A stretch of DNA of 12,343 nucleotides, from the IMG/VR virus record IMGVR_UViG_2563366949_000005. One strand, given 5' to 3'. Under the pieces are notes generated by a model, which was not told where the DNA came from, made no database searches, and saw only the letters and a program-made list of their open reading frames with translations. Origin of the DNA: a virus. Taxonomy: Duplodnaviria; Heunggongvirae; Uroviricota; Caudoviricetes. This document shows, piece by piece, positions 3,399 through 12,343 of this stretch. The translations under genes were made by a program, and so were the position numbers. Within the stretch, counting starts at the first letter, position 1. Each line of letters starts with the position of its first letter.

Positions 3399-6300
3399 AT
3401 GGGTAAAGGCAGCAGTAAGGGGCATACCCCGCGCGAAGCGAAGGACAACCTGAAGTCCACGCAGCTGCTGAGTGTGATCGATGCCATCAGTGAAGGGCCG
3501 ATTGAAGGTCCGGTGGATGGATTAAAAAGCGTGCTGCTGAACAGTACGCCGGTGCTGGACAGTGAGGGGAATACCAATATATCCGGCGTCACGGTGGTGT
3601 TCCGGGCAGGTGAGCAGGAGCAGACACCGCCGGAGGGGTTTGAATCCTCCGGCTCCGAGACGGTGCTGGGTACGGAAGTGAAATATGACACGCCGATCAC
3701 CCGGACCATCACGTCGGCAAACATCGACCGTCTGCGCTTTACCTTCGGTGTGCAGGCACTGGTGGAAACCACTTCAAAGGGGGACCGGAATCCGTCGGAA
3801 GTCCGCCTGCTGGTTCAGATACAGCGTAACGGTGGCTGGGTGACGGAAAAAGACATCACCATTAAGGGCAAAACCACCTCGCAGTATCTGGCCTCGGTGG
3901 TGGTGGATAACCTGCCTCCGCGCCCGTTCAATATCCGGATGCGCAGGATGACACCGGACAGCACTACAGACCAGCTGCAGAACAAAACGCTCTGGTCGTC
4001 ATACACCGAAATCATCGATGTGAAACAGTGCTACCCGAACACGGCACTGGTCGGCGTACAGGTGGACTCGGAGCAGTTCGGCAGCCAGCAGGTGAGCCGT
4101 AATTATCATCTTCGCGGGCGCATTCTGCAGGTTCCGTCGAACTATAACCCGCAGACGCGACAATACAGCGGTATCTGGGACGGAACGTTTAAGCCGGCAT
4201 ACAGCAACAACATGGCCTGGTGTCTGTGGGATATGCTGACCCACCCGCGCTACGGCATGGGGAAACGTCTTGATGCGGCGGATGTGGACAAATGGGCGCT
4301 GTATGTCATCGGCCAGAATTGCGACCAGTCGGTGCCGGACGGCTTTGGCGGCACGGAGCCGCGCATCACCTGTAACGCTTACCTGACCACACAACGTAAG
4401 GCGTGGGATGTGCTCAGTGATTTCTGCTCGGCGATGCGCTGTATGCCGGTATGGAACGGGCAGACGCTGACGTTCGTGCAGGACCGACCGTCGGATAAGG
4501 TGTGGACCTATAACCGCAGTAATGTGGTGATGCCGGATGATGGCGCGCCGTTCCGCTACAGCTTCAGCGCCCTGAAGGACCGCCATAATGCCGTTGAGGT
4601 GAACTGGATTGACCCGAATAACGGCTGGGAAACGGCAACAGAGCTTGTGGAGGACACGCAGGCCATTGCCCGTTACGGTCGTAACGTCACGAAGATGGAT
4701 GCCTTTGGCTGTACCAGCCGGGGGCAGGCACACCGCGCCGGGCTGTGGCTGATTAAAACGGAACTGCTGGAAACGCAGACCGTGGACTTCAGCGTGGGTG
4801 CAGAAGGGCTTCGCCATGTCCCGGGTGATGTCATTGAAATCTGTGATGATGACTATGCGGGCATCAGCATCGGCGGGCGCGTGCTGGCGGTGAACAGCCA
4901 GACGCGGACACTGACGCTCGACCGTGAAATCATGCTGCCATCCTCCGGTACCACGCTGATAAGCCTGGTTGACGGTCAGGGTAATCCGGTCAGCGTGGAG
5001 GTCCAGTCCGTCACCGACGGCGTGAAGGTGAAAGTGAGCCGTGTTCCTGACGGCGTTGCCGGATACAGCGTGTGGGGGCTGAAGTTGCCGACGTTGCGCC
5101 AGCGCCTGTTCCGCTGCGTGAGTATCCGTGAGAACGACGACGGCACGTATGCCATCACCGCCGTGCAGCATGTACCCGAAAAAGAAGCCATCGTGGATAA
5201 CGGGGCGCACTTTGACGGCGACCTGAGCAGCACGGTGAATGGCGTCACGCCGCCCGCGGTGCAGCACCTGACTGCCGAAGTCACCGCAGACAGCGGGGAA
5301 TATCAGGTGCTGGCGCGCTGGGACACGCCGAAGGTGGTGAAGGGGGGGAGCTTTATGCTTCGCCTGACCGTGGCAGCGGATGACGGCAGTGAGCGGCTGG
5401 TCAGCACGGCCAGGACGACGGAAACCACATACCGCTTCAGGCAACTGGCGCTGGGGAACTACAAGCTGACAGTCCGGGCGGTAAATGCGTGGGGGCAGCA
5501 GGGGGATCCGGCGTCAGTATCGTTCCGGATTGCCGCACCGGCAGCGCCATTGCGGATTGAGCTGACGCCGGGCTATTTTCAGATAACCGCCACGCCGCAT
5601 CTTGCCGTTTATGACCCGACGGTACAGTTTGAGTTCTGGTTCTCGGAAAAGCGGATTACCGATATCAGGCAGGTTGAAACCACAGCCCGCTATCTTGGTA
5701 CGGCGCTGTACTGGATAGCCGCCAGTATCAATATCAAACCGGGCCATGATTATTACTTTTATATCCGCAGTGTGAACACCGTTGGCAAATCGGCATTCGT
5801 GGAGGGCGTCGGTCGGGCGAGCGATGATGCGGAAGGTTACCTGGATTTTTTCAAAGGCAAGATAACCGAATCCCATCTCGGTAAAGAGCTGCTGGAAAAA
5901 GTTGATTTGACGGAGGATAACGCCAGCAGACTGGATGAGTTTTCGAAAGAGTGGAAGGACGCTAACGATAAATGGAATGCCATGTGGGGCGTCAAAATTG
6001 AGCAGACCAAAGACGGCAAACATTATGTCGCGGGTATTGGCCTCAGCATGGAGGACACGGAGGAAGGCAAGCTGAGCCAGTTTCTGGTTGCCGCTAACCG
6101 TATCGCGTTTATTGACCCGGCAAACGGGAATGAAACGCCGATGTTTGTGGCGCAGGGCAACCAGATATTCATGAACGACGTGTTCCTGAAGCGCCTGACA
6201 GCCCCCACCATTACCAGCGGTGGCAGTCCTCCGGTATTTTCCCTGACATCAGACGGAAAGCTGACCGCTAAAAATGCGGATATCAGTGGTAGTGTGAATG

Positions 6301-6812
6301 CGAACTCCGGGACGCTCAATAATGTCACGGTAAATGAAAACTGTACGATTAAGGGCATGCTGGAGGCGAACCAGGTCAGAGGTGACTTCGTTAAAACTGT
6401 ATCCAAATCATTCCCGAAAAAGGCTGGTACGTGGGGTAACACGGAAACACCAAACGGGACGGTTACAGTCACCATTTACGATGATCATAACTTTGACCGC
6501 CAAATCATTATTCCGCCCATTATTTTTAACGGTGTGGCGTATGACGATCCGGGGAGCGGTAATAACCCGGGAGGTACGCGATACACGGGTTATGGTTTTG
6601 AAGTTCGCAAAAATGGCGTATTAATCGCATCCAGAGAAACTAAAGGAGCCATTCCCGGTAGTTACAGTGCGGTTATTGATATGCCGAGTGGTGGTGGTAA
6701 CGTCACTCTGGAGTTTAAGATTTTCCAGAAAGGCAATCAGGGCGCAGGTAACATCACAGACTGTACGGTGATTGTGACCAAAAAAGCTGCTTCCGGTATC
6801 AGTATCCGTTGA
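3399..6812 (+). CDS. J: Host specificity / tip attachment protein J (central tail fibre), 1137 aa
   Basis: Very long ORF with a GAGGAA Shine-Dalgarno 5-6 nt upstream of ATG 3399. Size is close to lambda gpJ (about 1132 aa) and it follows I in canonical order. The large antisense ORF 3999..5444 is a GC-content artefact. Confidence 0.95.
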
Positions 6813-6860: not shown

Positions 6861-6872
6861 TGTGGAGTGAGT

Positions 6873-9245
6873 ATGGCAGTACAGATTTCAGGTGTGCTGA
6901 AAGACGGCACAGGAAAACCGGTACAGAACTGCACAATCCAGCTGAAAGCAAAACGTAACAGTACCACGGTACTGGTGAACACGGTGGCCTCTGAAAATCC
7001 GGATGAAGCCGGGCGTTACAGCATGGATGTTGAGTATGGCCAGTACAGCGTTATCCTGCTTGTTGAAGGTTTTCCGCCTTCACATGCCGGAACCATTACC
7101 GTCTATGAAGGTTCCAGACCAGGTACGCTGAATGATTTTCTCGGTGCCATGACGGAAGATGATGTCATGCCGGAGGCATTGCGTCGTTTTGAGGAAATGG
7201 TGGAAGAAGCGGCACGCAACGCTGAAGCCGCCTCTCAGAGCGCAGCGGCGGCAAAGAAATCCGAAACTGCAGCGGCATCATCGAAGAACGCGGCGAAAAC
7301 CTCAGAAACGAATGCAGCTAACAGCGCACAGGCGGCAGCGGCCTCGCAGACTGCATCGGCAAACTCCGCAACAGCAGCTAAAAAATCAGAAACCAACGCG
7401 AAAAATAGCGAGACAGCCGCAAAGACGAGCGAAACCAACGCAAAGTCCAGCCAGACGGCAGCGAAGACCAGCGAAACGAATGCTAAAGCCAGTGAAACTG
7501 CAGCAAAAAACAGCCAGGTTGCAGCAGCCCAAAGCGAGAGCGCGGCAGCCGGTTCTGCGACTTCAGCAGCTGGATCAGCAACTGCTGCGGCTAACAGCCA
7601 GAAAGCTGCGAAGACGAGTGAAACTAACGCAAAGTCCAGCCAGACGGCAGCGAAGACCAGCGAAACGAATGCCAAAGCCAGTGAAACTGCGGCGAAAAGC
7701 AGTCAGGATGCAGCGGCCCAAAGCGAGAGTGCCGCAGCCAGTTCTGCAAGCGCGGCGGCTGCTTCTGCTACTGCATCAGCTAACAGTCAAAAAGCAGCAA
7801 AAACCAGTGAAACCAACGCAAAGGTGAGCGAAACAGCGGCTGCGAACTCAGCGAAAGCATCGGCAGCAAGCCAGACGGCAGCTAAAGCAAGCGAAGATGC
7901 AGCCAGAGAGTACGCAAGCCAGGCTGCGGAGCCGTATAAATATGTCTTACAGCCGCTGCCTGATGTGTGGATACCATTTAACGATTCGCTGGATATGATT
8001 ACGGGCTTTTCGCCATCATATAAAAAAATTGTTATTGGTGACGATGAAATAACGATGCCTGGCGACAAGATTGTTAAGTTTAAACGTGCATCGAAAGCAA
8101 CCTATATTAACAAATCTGGTGTGCTGACAGAGGCTGCCATTGACGAGCCACGATTTGAACGTGATGGCCTGCTTATTGAGGGGCAAAGAACAAACTACAT
8201 GCTCAATTCGGAAAGCCCTGCCAGTTGGGGGCGATCGTCAAATATGGATGTGCCCGAAACAGGGACGGATAATTTTGGTTTTACCTATGGAAAGTTTGTC
8301 TGCAACGATTCTCTGATTGGGCAAACCTCAGCCATTAATATGGCATCAATTGCTGCAACAAAGTCAGTTGATGTCTCAGGCGATAATAAACACGTGACAA
8401 CCTCATGTCGTTTTAAAACAGAACTGCAGGTAAGGTTGCGTATCCGGTTTGATAAATATGACGGTAGCGCAACAACTTTTCTTGGTGATGCGTATATTGA
8501 TACACAAACGCTTGAAATTAATATGACAGGCGGTGCTGCCTCAAGAATTACAGCGAGAGTCAGAAAGGACGAAGCTACCGGATGGATTTTTGCAGAGGCA
8601 ACAATTCAGGCAATTGATGGGGAGTTAAAAATAGGCTCTCAGATACAGTATTCTCCTAAGCAGAGCGGGGCAACCGTATCTGGTGACTATATTTATCTGG
8701 CCACCCCACAAGTAGAAGATGGGCCTTGTGTATCATCTTTTATTATATCAGGAGCGACGGCGGCGACCCGCGCAAGCGATATAGTTACAGTTCCAATTAA
8801 GAATAATCTTTATAATCTTCCTTTTACGGTTCTTTGTGAGGTACATAAGAACTGGTATAAAACGCCAAATGCAGCGCCACGTGTTTTTGATACCGGCGGT
8901 CATCAAACCGGAGCGGCTATTATTCTTGGCTTCGGTCGTTCAACAGATTACGACGGATTTCCTTATTGCGATATTGGAGGAGCTAACAGACGGGTAAACG
9001 AAAACGCATCGCTTGAAAAAATGGTTATGGGGATGCGTGTAAAGTCAGAGCAGTCTACGTGCTCAGTAAGTAACGGGCATATATCCAGCGAAACAAAAAC
9101 CACATGGTCCTGTATTCAGAACACCGCAATTATCCGTATTGGAGGCCAGACTACAGCCGGGTTACGTCATTTATTTGGTCATGTCAGGAATTTCAGAATA
9201 TGGCACAAGGCATTGACTGATGCTCAGGTGGGGGAGTCAATCTAA
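6873..9245 (+). CDS. stf: Side tail fibre protein (Stf-like): conserved N-terminal anchor, Ala/Ser/Thr-rich repeat shaft, divergent AT-rich C-terminal domain
   Basis: N-terminus MAVQISGVLKDGTGKPVQNCTIQLKA...GFPPSHAGTITVYEGS matches the conserved N-terminal domain of lambdoid Stf proteins as I recall it. The ORF track starts at GTG 6867, but ATG 6873 with GGAG 5 nt upstream is the more likely start. The central part has 63-aa tandem repeats (AAKTSETNAKSSQTAAK...). The C-terminal part, about 440 aa, is encoded by visibly AT-richer DNA. Confidence 0.85.
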   Translation: MAVQISGVLKDGTGKPVQNCTIQLKAKRNSTTVLVNTVASENPDEAGRYSMDVEYGQYSVILLVEGFPPSHAGTITVYEGSRPGTLNDFLGAMTEDDVMPEALRRFEEMVEEAARNAEAASQSAAAAKKSETAAASSKNAAKTSETNAANSAQAAAASQTASANSATAAKKSETNAKNSETAAKTSETNAKSSQTAAKTSETNAKASETAAKNSQVAAAQSESAAAGSATSAAGSATAAANSQKAAKTSETNAKSSQTAAKTSETNAKASETAAKSSQDAAAQSESAAASSASAAAASATASANSQKAAKTSETNAKVSETAAANSAKASAASQTAAKASEDAAREYASQAAEPYKYVLQPLPDVWIPFNDSLDMITGFSPSYKKIVIGDDEITMPGDKIVKFKRASKATYINKSGVLTEAAIDEPRFERDGLLIEGQRTNYMLNSESPASWGRSSNMDVPETGTDNFGFTYGKFVCNDSLIGQTSAINMASIAATKSVDVSGDNKHVTTSCRFKTELQVRLRIRFDKYDGSATTFLGDAYIDTQTLEINMTGGAASRITARVRKDEATGWIFAEATIQAIDGELKIGSQIQYSPKQSGATVSGDYIYLATPQVEDGPCVSSFIISGATAATRASDIVTVPIKNNLYNLPFTVLCEVHKNWYKTPNAAPRVFDTGGHQTGAAIILGFGRSTDYDGFPYCDIGGANRRVNENASLEKMVMGMRVKSEQSTCSVSNGHISSETKTTWSCIQNTAIIRIGGQTTAGLRHLFGHVRNFRIWHKALTDAQVGESI
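7422..7800 (+). repeat. Tandem direct repeat of about 189 bp (two near-identical copies, partial third) inside stf
   Basis: Copy 1 begins aagacgagcgaaaccaacgcaaagtccagccagacggcagcgaagaccagcgaaacgaatgc at about 7422. Copy 2 begins aagacgagtgaaactaacgcaaagtccagccagacggcagcgaagaccagcgaaacgaatgc at about 7611. The period is 189 bp (63 codons) and the protein repeats are TNAKSSQTAAKTSETNAKASETAAK. Confidence 0.75.
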
Positions 9246-9526
9246 TGAAAGATTTAACACTCAAATTTGCCGACAGGGCCGACTTTTCGGCCTTTATGGA
9301 GAGTATTGGCTATTATGATGACGAGTCGATGCAGGATGATATTCTTATTGACGTGATAGGTAACGCGTACAAAGAAACCGGAGAACTGACTGAAGATGGC
9401 GAACCGGTATGTGTTAAGGAAGACGGATATTTTGTAAACGTGCGCATCATTAATGATTCGCAAATATCGTCATTATTCGATGAATACGTGGTTGCTGTTG
9501 AGCATCAACTTCGTGGCTGGATGTGA
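9245..9526 (+). CDS. Hypothetical small acidic protein (93 aa), translationally coupled to stf
   Basis: ATG at 9245 overlaps the stf stop (TAATG). The protein is strongly acidic (many D/E, few K/R). It shares low GC with the stf 3' half and the downstream gene. It does not resemble lambda Tfa as far as I can judge. Confidence 0.6.
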   Translation: MKDLTLKFADRADFSAFMESIGYYDDESMQDDILIDVIGNAYKETGELTEDGEPVCVKEDGYFVNVRIINDSQISSLFDEYVVAVEHQLRGWM

Positions 9527-9535
9527 GGAAGAAAA

Positions 9536-10576
9536 ATGGCTACATCGACAGTAATTCCTGATGACATCAAAACGCTAAAATCCGACGTTAGCAAATTAAA
9601 AAACGATCAAGGAAGCTACGCAACAAAATTATATGTTGACAGCAAAGATGAAATCGTTGGTGACTGGTCTGCTTCATGGTATCAGCAGGTATTGCCAACT
9701 AGCGGAGCTATATTTGGGAGAAAACTCCGCTCAACTCACAGGACGGCAGGTGTTGAGGATGCGTATTGCGAGCTATACCTCAAAAAATGGATAGACAGCC
9801 CAGGTAACGCAATGGCGCGCCTTAACCTGAACGATAACGGGACAAACATTTGCTGGGACTTTACCAACCTTTATGGCGGTACGATGATTTTTCCCGGTGA
9901 CAGCGGATACCTCAAAATGGGTAACTGCCTTATGTCATACAGCAAGCGTGGAAGTAACGCGCTTATTAAATTTGATTACACCGACACATTACAGATCAAA
10001 TATGCCAATCATGGGTCAACCATGACATTAAACACACAGGGAACCGCTTATGCTGGTGTTACTGCTCAATTGTGGGGCAACTCCAGCCGTCCTGTTGTTT
10101 ATGAAGTCGGTGTTGATGGTGGCGCTTATATGTTCTATGCGCAGAAAAATACCGATAACACCTATATGTTAAGCGTTAATGGTGCATGTCATGCCACCGC
10201 ATTTAACCAGCATTCCGACCGGGATCTGAAAGACAACATTCAGGTGATCGATAATGCAACCGACCGCATCCGTAAAATGAACGGCTACACATACACGCTT
10301 AAAGAAAACGGTATGCCCTATGCTGGTGTCATTGCACAGGAAGCTCTGGAAGCAATCCCAGAAGTTGTAGGTTCCGCAATGAAATATCAGGACGGTGCGA
10401 GCGGATCGGAAGGTGAAGAAGGTGAACGTTATTACACAGTAGATTATTCTGGTGTTACTGGCTTGCTTGTTCAGGTAGCCAGAGAGTCAGACGACAGAAT
10501 AACAGCACTGGAAGAAGAAAACGCAGAATTAAGACAAAGATTATCTGCAATTGATGCGGCGCTTGCGTCTAAATAA
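9536..10576 (+). CDS. Tail fibre / receptor-binding tip protein with C-terminal peptidase-S74 intramolecular chaperone (autoproteolytic) domain, 346 aa
   Basis: GAGGAAG Shine-Dalgarno 5 nt upstream of ATG 9536, 9 nt after the orf93 stop. The C-terminal ~120 aa carry the S74/endosialidase-chaperone signature: HSDRDLKDNI ... GYTYTLKENG ... YAGVIAQEALEAIPEVV ... YTVDYSGVTGLLVQVARE, then a heptad-like tail (ITALEEENAELRQRLSAIDAALASK). A terminator-like hairpin follows the stop. Confidence 0.75.
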   Translation: MATSTVIPDDIKTLKSDVSKLKNDQGSYATKLYVDSKDEIVGDWSASWYQQVLPTSGAIFGRKLRSTHRTAGVEDAYCELYLKKWIDSPGNAMARLNLNDNGTNICWDFTNLYGGTMIFPGDSGYLKMGNCLMSYSKRGSNALIKFDYTDTLQIKYANHGSTMTLNTQGTAYAGVTAQLWGNSSRPVVYEVGVDGGAYMFYAQKNTDNTYMLSVNGACHATAFNQHSDRDLKDNIQVIDNATDRIRKMNGYTYTLKENGMPYAGVIAQEALEAIPEVVGSAMKYQDGASGSEGEEGERYYTVDYSGVTGLLVQVARESDDRITALEEENAELRQRLSAIDAALASK

Positions 10577-10618: not shown

Positions 10619-10912
10619 ATGGATATAACACCTTTCCTTCATGCGCTTTGTGCTGTGGCTGCGCAGCTACTGATTGGTCTTTTTACCGGGAACTGGGCTT
10701 ACGGGGCGATAGCCGGTTGTACGTTCTTCATTGCGCGTGAACACACCCAGGCAGAATATCGCTGGATCGAAATGTTCGGGCATGGCAAGCGAATGAATAT
10801 GCCGTGGTGGGGCGGTTTTGATACACGTGCATGGGATGTGGCAAGCCTGATGGATTTTGCTGTGCCGGTGGTGGCGTGTCTGCTGGTCTGGCTGTTGGTT
10901 AATCGTGGGTGA
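10619..10912 (+). CDS. Small predicted integral membrane protein (about 97 aa, 2-3 hydrophobic segments), function unknown
   Basis: The ORF track begins at TTG 10604. In-frame ATGs at 10613 and 10619 are more plausible, with AGGA at 10610-10613. Hydrophobic stretches are FLHALCAVAAQLLIGLF, AYGAIAGCTFFIA and FAVPVVACLLVWLLV. The exact start is uncertain. Confidence 0.55.
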   Translation: MDITPFLHALCAVAAQLLIGLFTGNWAYGAIAGCTFFIAREHTQAEYRWIEMFGHGKRMNMPWWGGFDTRAWDVASLMDFAVPVVACLLVWLLVNRG

Positions 10913-11139
10913 AAAAAGGTGAGCTGTATATGCAACGGAGGAAGAAAACTCGTTGATGGAAGCCTGGAAGAAGTATCGGGTGTTGCTGAACCGTGTTGAT
11001 ACATCAACTGCACAGGATATTGAATGGCCAGCACTGCCGTAGGGTAAAACATATAAATTCTATAATTAGATGTATCTTTCCATTTACGGCAAGGAAGGGG
11101 GCTTGGAAGACGTAAAGCATCTCACACCAAGATTATTTT

Positions 11140-11730
11140 TTATATGTCAGGTGTCTGAAGTTTTGCTTTGGCTCTTAAAATGGTTTGCCGCGAGGTTTTG
11201 AATTCCCGGGCAATGGCACTTATACTTACACCTGACTTAATTCGTTCGAATACCACCTGTTTCTGTTCTTCATTTAACACAGGTGGTCGACCAAAACGTT
11301 TCCCTGCGCCCCGGGCTCTTACTATCCCGGAATGAGTGCGTTCAAGTAAAAGGTCTCGTTCAAATTCAGCGACTGCTGAAATTACTTGCATCATCATTTT
11401 TCCTGTTGGACTGGTCAGGTCAATGCCCCCCAATGCTAAGCAATGCACTCTGATACCTGTTTCGGTCAGTTGTTCCACTGTTTTCCTGATATCCATTGCA
11501 TTACAACCAAGGCGATCCAGTTTTGTCACAATCAATTGATCACCACATTTCAGGCGAGCAAGCAACCGGTTAAAACCAGGACGCTCACTGGTTGCTGCTG
11601 AGCCGCTAATGTGTTCTTCGATTATTTGCTGAGGTTTGATTTTAAAACCTGCACTTTCGATTTCCCGGCGTTGATTTTCGGTGGTCTGATCCAGCGTTGA
11701 TATCCGACAGTAAGCAAAAATTCGAGACAT
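11140..11730 (-). CDS. Small serine recombinase (resolvase/invertase family), 196 aa
   Basis: The N-terminus [15 protein letters not shown] contains the catalytic Ser/Arg motif of serine recombinases. A KLDRLGC motif and a C-terminal helix-turn-helix ([21 protein letters not shown]) are present. The start is an ATG (complement of CAT at 11728-11730) and the stop is TAA at 11140-11142. Confidence 0.9.
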
Positions 11731-12109
11731 AGTGAGACTCTATACGAAATTGGTGTACATATCATAATGCATATCCAAAAATTATTTCGTTTATTATTGT
11801 ACATATTTGTATGTATACGTTCGAAAATAAACGAATTCGGATGCAGTCCCGTAATTTTGGTGTAACCAAAAATCGATTTTTTGAAAAATGGCTTTAACTC
11901 GGTTTGTTTTTCGAACTCCGGGCGGACTCGAGGAAGACGAATAATAGTGTTGTATGTTATTTCAACCAGATTTTAAGTTGTTTGGTCGTGGAAAAGTGGA
12001 GCAAAATGTTGTTAAAGTGGAAAAATGGTAAAAAAAGTAGGTTGTTGCGGAATAACGTAGTTGTTGATATTTTTTTAATGCATTGAAAAATTATTTTTCA
12101 GGGGGGGCA
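11731..12109 (-). promoter_or_regulatory. AT-rich non-coding region upstream of the recombinase: probable promoter/operator region, possibly including a recombination site
   Basis: About 380 bp without a credible ORF. The 9-mer TGTACATAT occurs twice (11755-11763 and 11799-11807). An inverted repeat TACATA-N3-TATGTA lies at 11801-11815. A direct repeat AAAGTGGA is at 11993 and 12014, 21 bp apart. A palindrome TGAAAAA-TTA-TTTTTCA lies at 12084-12100. Confidence 0.4.
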
Positions 12110-12343
12110 TTACACTTTACCATTTAAATTTTGGTTGTCTTTAAGAACTGATATCGCTGTTTGTAATAATTCTTTGTTATCCAGCCATGACTTTTTCTTT
12201 ATGTTTCCTTCAATGTAATCAAGCAATGTTCTGGTATTGATAGGTCTTCCCTGTTTTGCTACTTCCACGACAGCATCTCCCAGGATAATTCTGACTTCAG
12301 GAAGCTGCGCAGGGAACCACTTTAGGGTGTCTTTTGATTTCAT
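12110..12343 (-). CDS. Hypothetical small protein (at least 77 aa); its ATG coincides with the window edge, so the true 5' end may lie outside
   Basis: Open minus-strand frame from 12343 to the TAA at 12110-12112, in AT-rich DNA. No recognisable motif. Its extent cannot be decided from this window. Confidence 0.45.
   Translation of the reverse strand: MKSKDTLKWFPAQLPEVRIILGDAVVEVAKQGRPINTRTLLDYIEGNIKKKSWLDNKELLQTAISVLKDNQNLNGKV

Follow-up and report, generated by a model that had tools for sequence, protein, structure and literature searches.

The DNA analysed here, 12,343 nucleotides from the Caudoviricetes record IMGVR_UViG_2563366949_000005 (hereafter the window), constitutes the right arm of a lambdoid prophage, and it raises the question of what the repeats in one of its spacers stand for. 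The spacer comprises 379 bp (11731-12109), from the stop codon of ydfK to the start codon of a pinR-type serine recombinase gene, both genes being read on the minus strand, and has a G+C content of 0.33. Its counterparts in Escherichia coli K-12, the pinR-ynaE spacer of the Rac prophage and the pinQ-ydfK spacer of the Qin prophage, are without annotated features. An original prediction, made from the letters alone, had noted duplicated words and short palindromes in the spacer and proposed operator or accessory sites for the recombinase, sites for another DNA-binding protein, or a small RNA. Within-sequence repeat statistics are suggestive on this point; comparison with related elements is the decisive evidence. 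Judged by that comparison, the spacer is likely to be a composite: a degenerate resolution (res) site at 11731-11843, a junction with the right terminal inverted repeat of a Tn3-family mini-transposon at 11844-11930, and phage DNA that forms the tail of the ydfK transcript at 11936-12109.

A predicted res site next to pinR

When the spacer alone was used as the query in a sensitive search, its first 80 bases (11731-11810) were matched by about 140 plasmids at 77-80% identity, from hosts that include E. coli, Salmonella, Klebsiella, Proteus and Arsenophonus. In every examined plasmid locus with an annotated recombinase gene the match sits directly upstream of a PinR homologue, and the homology to the plasmid copies, at the same 77-80% identity, spans 80-130 bp upstream of the start codon. 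We aligned the 143 nt upstream of the gene for 14 family members and computed conservation on the 12 relatives found outside E. coli prophages. Read toward the start codon, the family has a layout of 26, 14, 32, 12 and about 22 bp, followed by a leader of 10 to 12 nt, and the aligned relatives keep this spacing, some with a deviation of 1 bp in either direction. Site I (26 bp) has the family sequence TGTCCGAAA-N8-TTTCGGACA and site II (32 bp) reads TGTCCGAAAGT-N10-ATTTCGGACA; the 12 bp that follow carry a conserved TATAAT, and site III (about 22 bp) reads ..TTCGTACA-N5-TTTCGTACA. The subsites are conserved at 1.44-1.55 bits per column, versus 0.50 in the spacer between sites I and II and 0.46 beyond site I. 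As read from this alignment, all three subsites are built from the half-site TGT(C/A)CGAAA. The comparison with the upstream regions of the closest recombinase homologues, which the original prediction had suggested as a check, thus reveals a three-subsite res layout common to the PinR-family recombinases, and we identify 11731-11843 as the res of a small Tn3-family transposon whose resolvase gene is annotated pinR in E. coli, with binding and recombination at the site as predicted functions.

In the window, the subsite nearest the gene is site III (11741-11762, minus strand), which reads ATATGTACA-CCAA-TTTCGTATA and agrees with the consensus at 19/22 positions (1.52 bits per column among the 12 relatives). 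Site II (11772-11803, minus strand, 32 bp), TGTACAATA...TTTTGGATA, agrees at 22/32 (1.44 bits per column). Site I (11818-11843, minus strand, 26 bp), the presumed crossover site, is degenerate; it reads CATCCGAAT-N8-TTTCGAACG and retains 15/26 consensus positions, in a family where this subsite reaches 1.55 bits per column. A half-site matrix was built from the relatives only and scanned over the window (24,666 positions). The six predicted half-sites rank 1, 10, 16, 27, 62 and 224: the site III half-site TATACGAAATT is the best of all positions, those of site II rank 10 and 62 (with an internal repeat that ranks 3), and those of site I rank 16 and 27. Four of the 16 matrix matches of at least 6 bits fall within these 120 bp, where about 0.16 would be expected.

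One further match belongs to a different place. The second-best match to the matrix, TGACCGAAACA, lies within the pinR coding sequence (11458-11468, minus strand), where it encodes L-T-E-T; the equivalent stretch of the E. albertii gene reads TGACCGAATCT, and the match is probably a coincidence of coding. A variation on the res layout is seen in Erwinia oleae (L023 1864-2068), in which 203 bp separate a divergent pair of PinR-family recombinase genes (72-78% identity to PinR); the pair apparently shares one central site I, with a site II and site III of its own for each gene on either side, giving a symmetric double res.

The res layout accounts for one of the repeats. The 9-mer TGTACATAT was originally noted as occurring twice at a distance of 44 bp, and the window indeed has exactly two copies (11754-11762 and 11798-11806), which lie within 24-76 bp of the position at which the recombinase gene starts (11730); window-wide, 0.06 would be expected by chance, and none of 200 shuffles gave two copies. 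The first copy is the distal half of site III and the second forms the core of the left half of site II, and the 44-bp spacing follows from 32 + 12. The inverted repeat reported around the second copy is present (11800-11815), but with a spacer of 4 nt rather than 3 (TACATA-TTTG-TATGTA). This palindrome is formed by the left half of site II together with part of the non-conserved 14-bp spacer between sites I and II (11804-11817, 0.50 bits per column), and it is specific to the E. coli prophage copies. The shuffled-sequence control that had been called for gave a divided answer. With 1000 dinucleotide shuffles, direct 6-, 7- and 8-mer repeats in the whole region exceed the shuffles (P = 0.000, 0.003 and 0.003), whereas the sub-regions are marginal alone: the res part gave P of about 0.03-0.15, and the distal part is significant for 6-mers only (P = 0.01).

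Between sites II and III lies a candidate -10 hexamer of the recombinase promoter, TATGAT (11761-11766, minus strand), recognized from the alignment; the position reads TATAAT, TATGAT or TATCAT in 14 of 14 aligned family members. RNA polymerase holoenzyme binds the K-12 ynaE-pinR and ydfK-pinQ spacers in vitro, and the authors of that study propose other hexamers, TGTACA-16-AATAAT, which are likewise inside res (PMC3946193). In Tn3-family transposons with divergent tnpR and tnpA, the intergenic spacer is the res and carries resolvase-repressed promoters, with site III adjoining tnpR (PMC7157771). By analogy, the promoter would be blocked when PinR dimers occupy sites II and III, so that pinR would be autoregulated. 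With the recombinase promoter plausibly placed inside res, PinR may repress its own gene as TnpR does in Tn3. The original res-like reading holds for the 113 bp that adjoin the recombinase gene. It does not extend to the AAAGTGGA and GTTGTT motifs of the original prediction, which lie outside the transposon and are explained better by strand composition, as discussed below.

Terminal repeats and a probable transposase-less element around pinR

The relatives of pinR (11140-11730, minus strand; 196 aa, Pfam Resolvase and HTH_7) are found on plasmids and in transposons. PinR of the window is 100% identical to K-12 PinR, and its close relatives at 60-85% identity (1,858 plasmid records) are plasmid and transposon recombinases. 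On the E. albertii plasmid pEA16-3_1, a homologue 84% identical to PinR is the TnpR of a complete transposon, in which it faces a 994-aa Tn3-family transposase (1199 bits on the NCBIfam model transpos_Tn3) across a 160-bp spacer. The unit measures 3.8 kb and is bounded by inverted repeats of 52 nt, 96% complementary and starting GGGGTCCGCTTGG, with a clean 5-bp duplication, TATAT. Shewanella glacialipiscicola carries a matching unit, its transposase being 84% identical to that of E. albertii, again with 160 bp between divergent tnpR and tnpA. The plasmid pAPEC-O1-ColBM has an 852-bp version lacking the transposase, which consists of repeat, tnpR, res, about 50 bp and repeat. The terminal repeat of the family reads GGGGTCCGCTTGGAAAACGGAAAATATCCCACGCTAAG.

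Both ends of such an element can be recognized in the window. Downstream of pinR, homology to the plasmid and transposon copies starts exactly at the terminal repeat. This left inverted repeat, IR-L (11097-11131, plus strand), was assigned by its match to the family repeat and has a 3-bp deletion near its tip; the best family-repeat match in the whole window falls here (11101-11141), with a score of 42 versus a shuffle maximum of 26, and a hand count on an alignment of eight repeat sequences, those of E. albertii, Shewanella and pAPEC included, gives agreement with the consensus at 37/45 positions. On the other side of the gene, the right inverted repeat, IR-R (11893-11930, minus strand), was assigned through the pAPEC element: the pAPEC IR-R has its best match in the window at 11884-11919 (minus strand), just beyond res, which is the location and direction required of a right repeat, and this match scores 32 versus a shuffle mean of 21.5. 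By hand count it is identical to the pAPEC IR-R at 33/48 positions and to the family consensus at 30/48. Between res and IR-R lies a junction segment of 49 bp (11844-11892), at the location that tnpA occupies in intact relatives. It aligns in part with the same segment of the pAPEC-O1-ColBM mini-element (TCCCGyMATTyTGGyG). We considered whether the junction might be a remnant of tnpA and rejected this, as it matches neither end of the E. albertii tnpA.

Directly outside the two repeats stand two copies of AGGAA, at 11092-11096 on the left and 11931-11935 on the right, which we regard as a candidate 5-bp target-site duplication; the tips of the repeats are degenerate and slightly uncertain, so a chance match is possible. 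Both K-12 prophages, Rac and Qin, have these same AGGAA junctions, as do the other E. coli copies examined, and this indicates one ancestral insertion of a non-autonomous element of about 834 bp. A tblastn search of the window with the E. albertii TnpA found no transposase, and without tnpA the element is to be called a non-autonomous derivative, not a transposon. From its repeats and gene content, we conclude that pinR sits in a transposase-less Tn3-family mini-transposon of about 834 bp, which would have entered an ancestral lambdoid phage in a single event, at a position between ydfK and the tail-fibre genes.

Some likeness was also seen between the flanks of the window and pAPEC elements. 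The 8-mer AGGAAGAC, directly outside IR-R in the window (11931-11939 region), is found directly outside the pAPEC IR-L too, when read outward, and the left flank of the pAPEC element, GATGTAGTCTTCCTT (L005 2349-2363), resembles GATGTATCTTTCCATT of the window (11066-11096 region), at a place 12 nt farther from the repeat. This could reflect a shared ancestral flank; the likeness is too short to interpret.

The gene order around the element is that of a prophage. The gene for tail protein J (3399-6812) is followed by tail-fibre genes (6867-10576), the recombinase gene and ydfK. The 1.2 kb around the spacer are 100% identical to E. coli CEA212U and to phage PhiR63_1, and the 1.2-kb region is matched in 2,878 of 5,426 complete E. 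coli genomes, about half. An IS3-family element disrupts a small gene in CEA212U, the best-matching genome (L001 5810-7261); in the window this gene is intact (9245-9526), so the window would derive from a relative that lacks the insertion, for example a PhiR63_1-like phage. Immediately to the left of the mini-transposon, within a remnant tail-fibre-assembly gene, there is a plus-strand partial match to IS009, an Rfam family that represents a candidate small RNA of E. coli (10910-11008; 66 bits versus a gathering score of 117, E 2e-14).

This neighbourhood, and the annotation of the gene as pinR or "DNA invertase," raise a different possibility, namely that the region holds gix/hix-type crossover or accessory sites and that a Hin/Gin/Pin-type invertase inverts a tail-fibre segment close by. 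PinR matches Gin (E 2.7e-29) slightly better than it matches gamma-delta resolvase (E 2.4e-22), and stimulation by PinQ of inversion of the e14 P segment has been reported (PMC12529663). The crossover sites that an invertase would use were searched for, but the core AAACCNNGGTTT (AAACC-NN-GGTTT) has no match with two or fewer mismatches on either strand of the 12.3-kb window, where 5.6 would be expected by chance. Furthermore, the 3' end of pinR, not its 5' end, points toward the tail-fibre genes, and the gene and its upstream region also occur in Tn3-family transposons and on plasmids without tail-fibre genes nearby. We consider it very improbable that the locus is an inversion system of this kind. 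The res and the terminal repeat around pinR indicate instead that the gene began as a transposon resolvase, not as a Pin-type invertase.

The original prediction had also compared CTTTAAC-TC-GGTTTGT to a gix/hix-like half-site. This string is present from 11892, but it has three mismatches to the 10 specified bases of the core AAACCNNGGTTT and is one of 74 scored three-mismatch matches on the two strands of the window; it is not a half-site, being instead the inner end of the Tn3-type IR-R.

The tract downstream of ydfK

Beyond the right AGGAA, the remainder of the spacer (11936-12109, minus strand) is untranslated phage DNA downstream of the stop codon of ydfK. The latter gene (12110-12343, minus strand) is the upstream neighbour of pinR and belongs to the cold-shock YdfK/YnaE family, as judged from the annotation in matching genomes and a Pfam YnaE match. 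This distal stretch is found only in E. coli lambdoid prophages, and in K-12 Rac and Qin it is shorter by about 60 bp, which are missing from the part that directly follows the ydfK stop codon (within 12043-12108).

Several of the motifs first noted lie here, and not all were described exactly. The repeat of AAAGTGGA is real, at 11993 and 12014, 21 bp apart, but the second copy, AAAGTGGAAAAATG, falls 2 nt short of the 16-nt form AAAGTGGA(G/A)(C/A)AAAATG and does not conform to it. Two occurrences of AAAGTGGA are marginal window-wide, with 0.40 expected and two copies in 14 of 200 shuffles. GTTGTT is exact at 11977, 12008, 12041 and 12060; the copy reported at 11947 is GTGTTGTA, and the position 12007 was off by one. 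This hexamer is not enriched in the window as a whole (9 versus 7.96 expected), yet four copies fall on one strand within 90 bp.

The base composition of the tract offers an explanation. On the ydfK-sense strand, 11931-12109 contains 26% C and 6% G, and the most extreme 78-nt stretch of C over G on either strand of the window is found at 11970-12047, with 23 C versus 2 G. It is exactly here that AAAGTGGA and GTTGTT lie; on the transcript they read TCCACTTT and AACAAC. Stretches of 78 nt that start just past the ydfK stop codon have C/G ratios of 4-9. The RNA of the distal part is predicted to be essentially unstructured (-12.7 kcal/mol for 185 nt, z -0.84), and a terminator scan predicted no intrinsic terminator after ydfK. 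A Rho-loading signature consists of about 78 nt of untranslated, unstructured RNA with C in excess of G, and predicted sites in E. coli have an average C/G of 1.6 (PMC6407284). By base composition alone, then, the tract may be a Rho-dependent terminator or loading site, a proposal to which we give a little less than an even chance. Rho loaded on the tract would end ydfK transcription and so shield pinR from read-through, which is the least certain step of the scheme. Among the 12 top-ranked of 160 literature matches there was no report linking ydfK or ynaE with Rho. Elsewhere on the minus strand of the window, some 78-nt stretches that start at about 10800-11000 have C/G ratios of at least 3.

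It seems improbable to us that some other DNA-binding protein, for instance a nucleoid protein or a regulator of the phage, has its sites in the distal AAAGTGGA and GTTGTT motifs. It is true that the AAAGTGGA copies are two helical turns apart, that 6-mer repeats are enriched in 11936-12109 (P = 0.01), that the tract differs less from K-12 than res does (7 differences over about 11939-12042 versus 15 in 120), and that H-NS has been flagged at the K-12 ydfK-pinQ spacer (PMC3946193). However, there is no enrichment of repeats from 7 nt upward (P = 0.17-1.0), the double occurrence of AAAGTGGA is only marginally unusual, its extended form is 2 nt out of register between the copies, and the skew of one strand accounts for recurring G/T-rich words on the opposite strand. 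Conservation says little in the distal tract because all known copies are in near-identical prophages. The AAAGTGGA and GTTGTT repeats are thus better explained by strand composition than by recombinase binding.

The length of the spacer, 379 bp between genes on the same strand, might also suggest that it encodes a small RNA or a small protein whose gene is reflected in the repeats. Automated phage annotations place small open reading frames here, and there are 60-aa frames at 11904-12086 on the plus strand and 11622-11804 on the minus strand, but neither has a Pfam match, and RefSeq annotates nothing in the spacer across thousands of genomes, K-12 included. With a permissive threshold, Rfam yielded within the spacer only a chance-level microRNA match (E = 4), no terminator is predicted, and the fold z-scores are significant neither for the distal part (-0.84) nor for the proximal part (-1.92), where the pairing is due to the inverted repeats of res. 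The small RNA put forward originally therefore finds no backing, and we hold a gene of either kind to be highly unlikely.

Probable decay of the module and its place among known systems

Codon 76 of pinR (11503-11505, minus strand), in the motif LDRLG-C, is TGT for Cys; the relatives have CGT for Arg, and a single CGT-to-TGT change accounts for the difference. Arg is present at this position in 14 of 14 aligned relatives of 55-85% identity, in the more distant TnpR of Tn5403, and in 112 of 120 homologue cluster representatives, those 91-93% identical to PinR included; Cys is confined to clusters 99-100% identical to the PinR and PinQ of E. coli prophages and to one 85% variant. The position corresponds to Arg71 of Tn3 resolvase, an essential catalytic residue: recombination is lost in the R71A and R71K mutants, in which cleavage is slowed about 1000-fold, whereas mutations of catalytic residues, R71 among them, do not strongly inhibit binding to site I (PMC2794168). 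The recombination function of the pinR module is probably vestigial, given that the missing transposase leaves no cointegrates to be resolved, that site I has drifted and res has diverged, and that PinR carries Cys76.

Several observations weigh against the composite reading of the spacer, or against parts of it. The subsites of res are degenerate (15/26 for site I and 22/32 for site II), two half-sites are without the CG core, and site III reads as a direct repeat, not an inverted one, unlike Tn3. No good -35 element was found for the recombinase promoter, and a generic promoter scan made no promoter call on the recombinase strand within res. IR-R is 63-69% identical to the family repeats and scores 32 where the best of 40 shuffles scores 30; because its alignment score is barely above the shuffles, the assignment leans on position and orientation. 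The pAPEC mini-element is without a duplication, and in the 5,426 complete E. coli genomes there is no empty site, in which the flanks would be joined with one AGGAA; no place covered that junction. For want of an unoccupied site, the insertion event is not directly demonstrable. The Rho proposal draws only on base composition. Finally, Cys76 suggests that PinR has little catalytic activity, and yet a 2025 report, which does not discuss Tn3, res or catalytic residues, finds that overproduced PinQ raises inversion of the e14 P segment, and notes as well that the pinE mutant is locked in one orientation (PMC12529663); this report conflicts with the expectation from Cys76.

The extent of decay can be judged by comparison with the K-12 copies. 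Between the window and K-12 (Rac and Qin), res has 15 mismatches in 120 positions and pinR 3 in 591; where relatives decide, the ancestral state is that of the window in eight cases and that of K-12 in three. Most E. coli genomes have the K-12-type spacer, 80-90% identical to that of the window, and the window type occurs in only about 100 records. It might be argued from this that the locus is a dead fossil, a sequence descended from res at which PinR no longer binds or regulates, so that the spacer is now a weak AT-rich promoter region. The state of site I, the half-sites without a CG core, the uneven divergence of res and pinR, the missing transposase, and the Cys at the catalytic Arg71 position all fit such a view. 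On the other hand, site III (19/22) and the -10 hexamer are still near consensus, the uneven divergence stems in part from recombination between copies and not from decay, and PinR repression could outlast lost catalysis, because binding to site I is not strongly inhibited in the Tn3 catalytic mutants. We regard complete loss of binding as unlikely, while giving it more weight than the other alternatives to a res that is still bound by PinR.

A mosaic copy was encountered at prfC in E. coli GCA_910593615 (L040 2614-3690), where the prophage context is the same. The part that runs from ydfK across IR-R and site I and includes half of site II resembles the window; from that point within site II until close to the 3' end of the recombinase gene, which has Arg76, the sequence resembles the pAPEC plasmid, and the remainder returns to the window type. 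Evidently there is recombination between copies on plasmids and copies in prophages, and one of the crossovers fell within res.

The genes pinR and pinQ are K-12 genes that have long been labelled Pin-like invertases, and a 2025 phage-defence model has PinQ inverting DNA in another prophage, with the origin of the gene and its own target not considered (PMC12529663). In the searchable literature no paper connects pinR or pinQ with such an element, whether by way of the terminal repeat or of Tn3 or a resolvase, though absence there is not proof of absence elsewhere. It appears to be new that K-12 pinR and pinQ belong to a Tn3-family mini-element, have an adjacent res and carry an Arg-to-Cys change. 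The mini-transposon setting, the adjacent res and a Cys in place of an essential Arg change which experiments make sense. One speculative view, which we rate as rather unlikely, is that PinR and PinQ are a domesticated, catalytically crippled resolvase whose native target would be the adjacent decaying res and which would regulate by binding DNA or assist PinE as a partner without catalytic activity; the PinQ-dependent inversion in e14 would then be indirect. There is also a caution for annotation, since both the "recombinase upstream repeats" and the "gix-like half-site" are parts of a transposon, and a serine recombinase beside tail-fibre genes is not necessarily an invertase.

How, then, does the element compare with known systems? 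With Hin, Gin, Cin and Pin it shares a small serine recombinase located beside phage tail-fibre genes, and its name is derived from Pin. PinQ is reported to be 38% identical to PinE (PMC12529663). The element differs in that the window is without AAACC-NN-GGTTT crossover sites, in the orientation of pinR, which is wrong for the Gin/Pin arrangement, and in the nearest relatives of PinR, which are transposon and plasmid resolvases (77-84% identical).

The likeness to Tn3 and gamma-delta is one of architecture. There, too, res lies directly upstream of a small serine recombinase gene and has three subsites made from one half-site motif, with site III next to tnpR, a promoter (in the window, a candidate one) inside res and, in intact relatives of the window element, site I toward tnpA; terminal repeats of the 38-bp type with a GGGG start and a TAAG end, and 5-bp duplications, are likewise shared. 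The half-site motif of the PinR family resembles the left half of Tn3 site I (CGTTCGAAA), and the terminal repeats resemble those of the Tn21 subgroup, combined with a divergent gene order that is Tn3-like. The subsites of Tn3 and gamma-delta measure 28, 34 and 25 bp; those of the family found in the window measure 26, 32 and about 22 bp, with spacers of 14 and 12 bp. In addition, PinR is no closer to gamma-delta resolvase than to Gin, and in the window tnpA is missing and res is degenerate.

Tn5403 was considered as a parent, since the map in one paper draws "pinR" beside it. This Tn3-family transposon, common on Klebsiella plasmids, has its tnpA and tnpR in divergent orientation and carries no passenger genes. 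We rejected it: the copy from pKPN-068 has unrelated repeats, a 94-bp spacer, and identities of 34% for TnpR and 35% for TnpA.

Transposase-less Tn3-family cassettes, the mobile insertion cassettes, occur in Xanthomonas (PMC7157771). In these and in other Tn3-derived miniature elements, as in the window, Tn3-type repeats bracket a short segment without a transposase, which is mobile only with a transposase from elsewhere. The cassettes described carry passenger genes or nothing, whereas the element in the window carries the resolution module itself, tnpR and res, and its mobilisation is hypothetical.

The direct homologues are the elements of E. albertii, Shewanella and pAPEC-O1-ColBM, which have the same terminal repeats, the same res layout and recombinases 77-84% identical to PinR; the pAPEC copy also shares the order of repeat, tnpR, res and repeat without a transposase. 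The copy in the window differs from these in its lambdoid prophage setting, in the greater drift of its repeats and res, in Cys76 and in the AGGAA flanks. In kind, both the res and the non-autonomous derivative belong to well-known categories: from its sequence and setting, what adjoins pinR is an ordinary res site, within an ordinary transposon relic.

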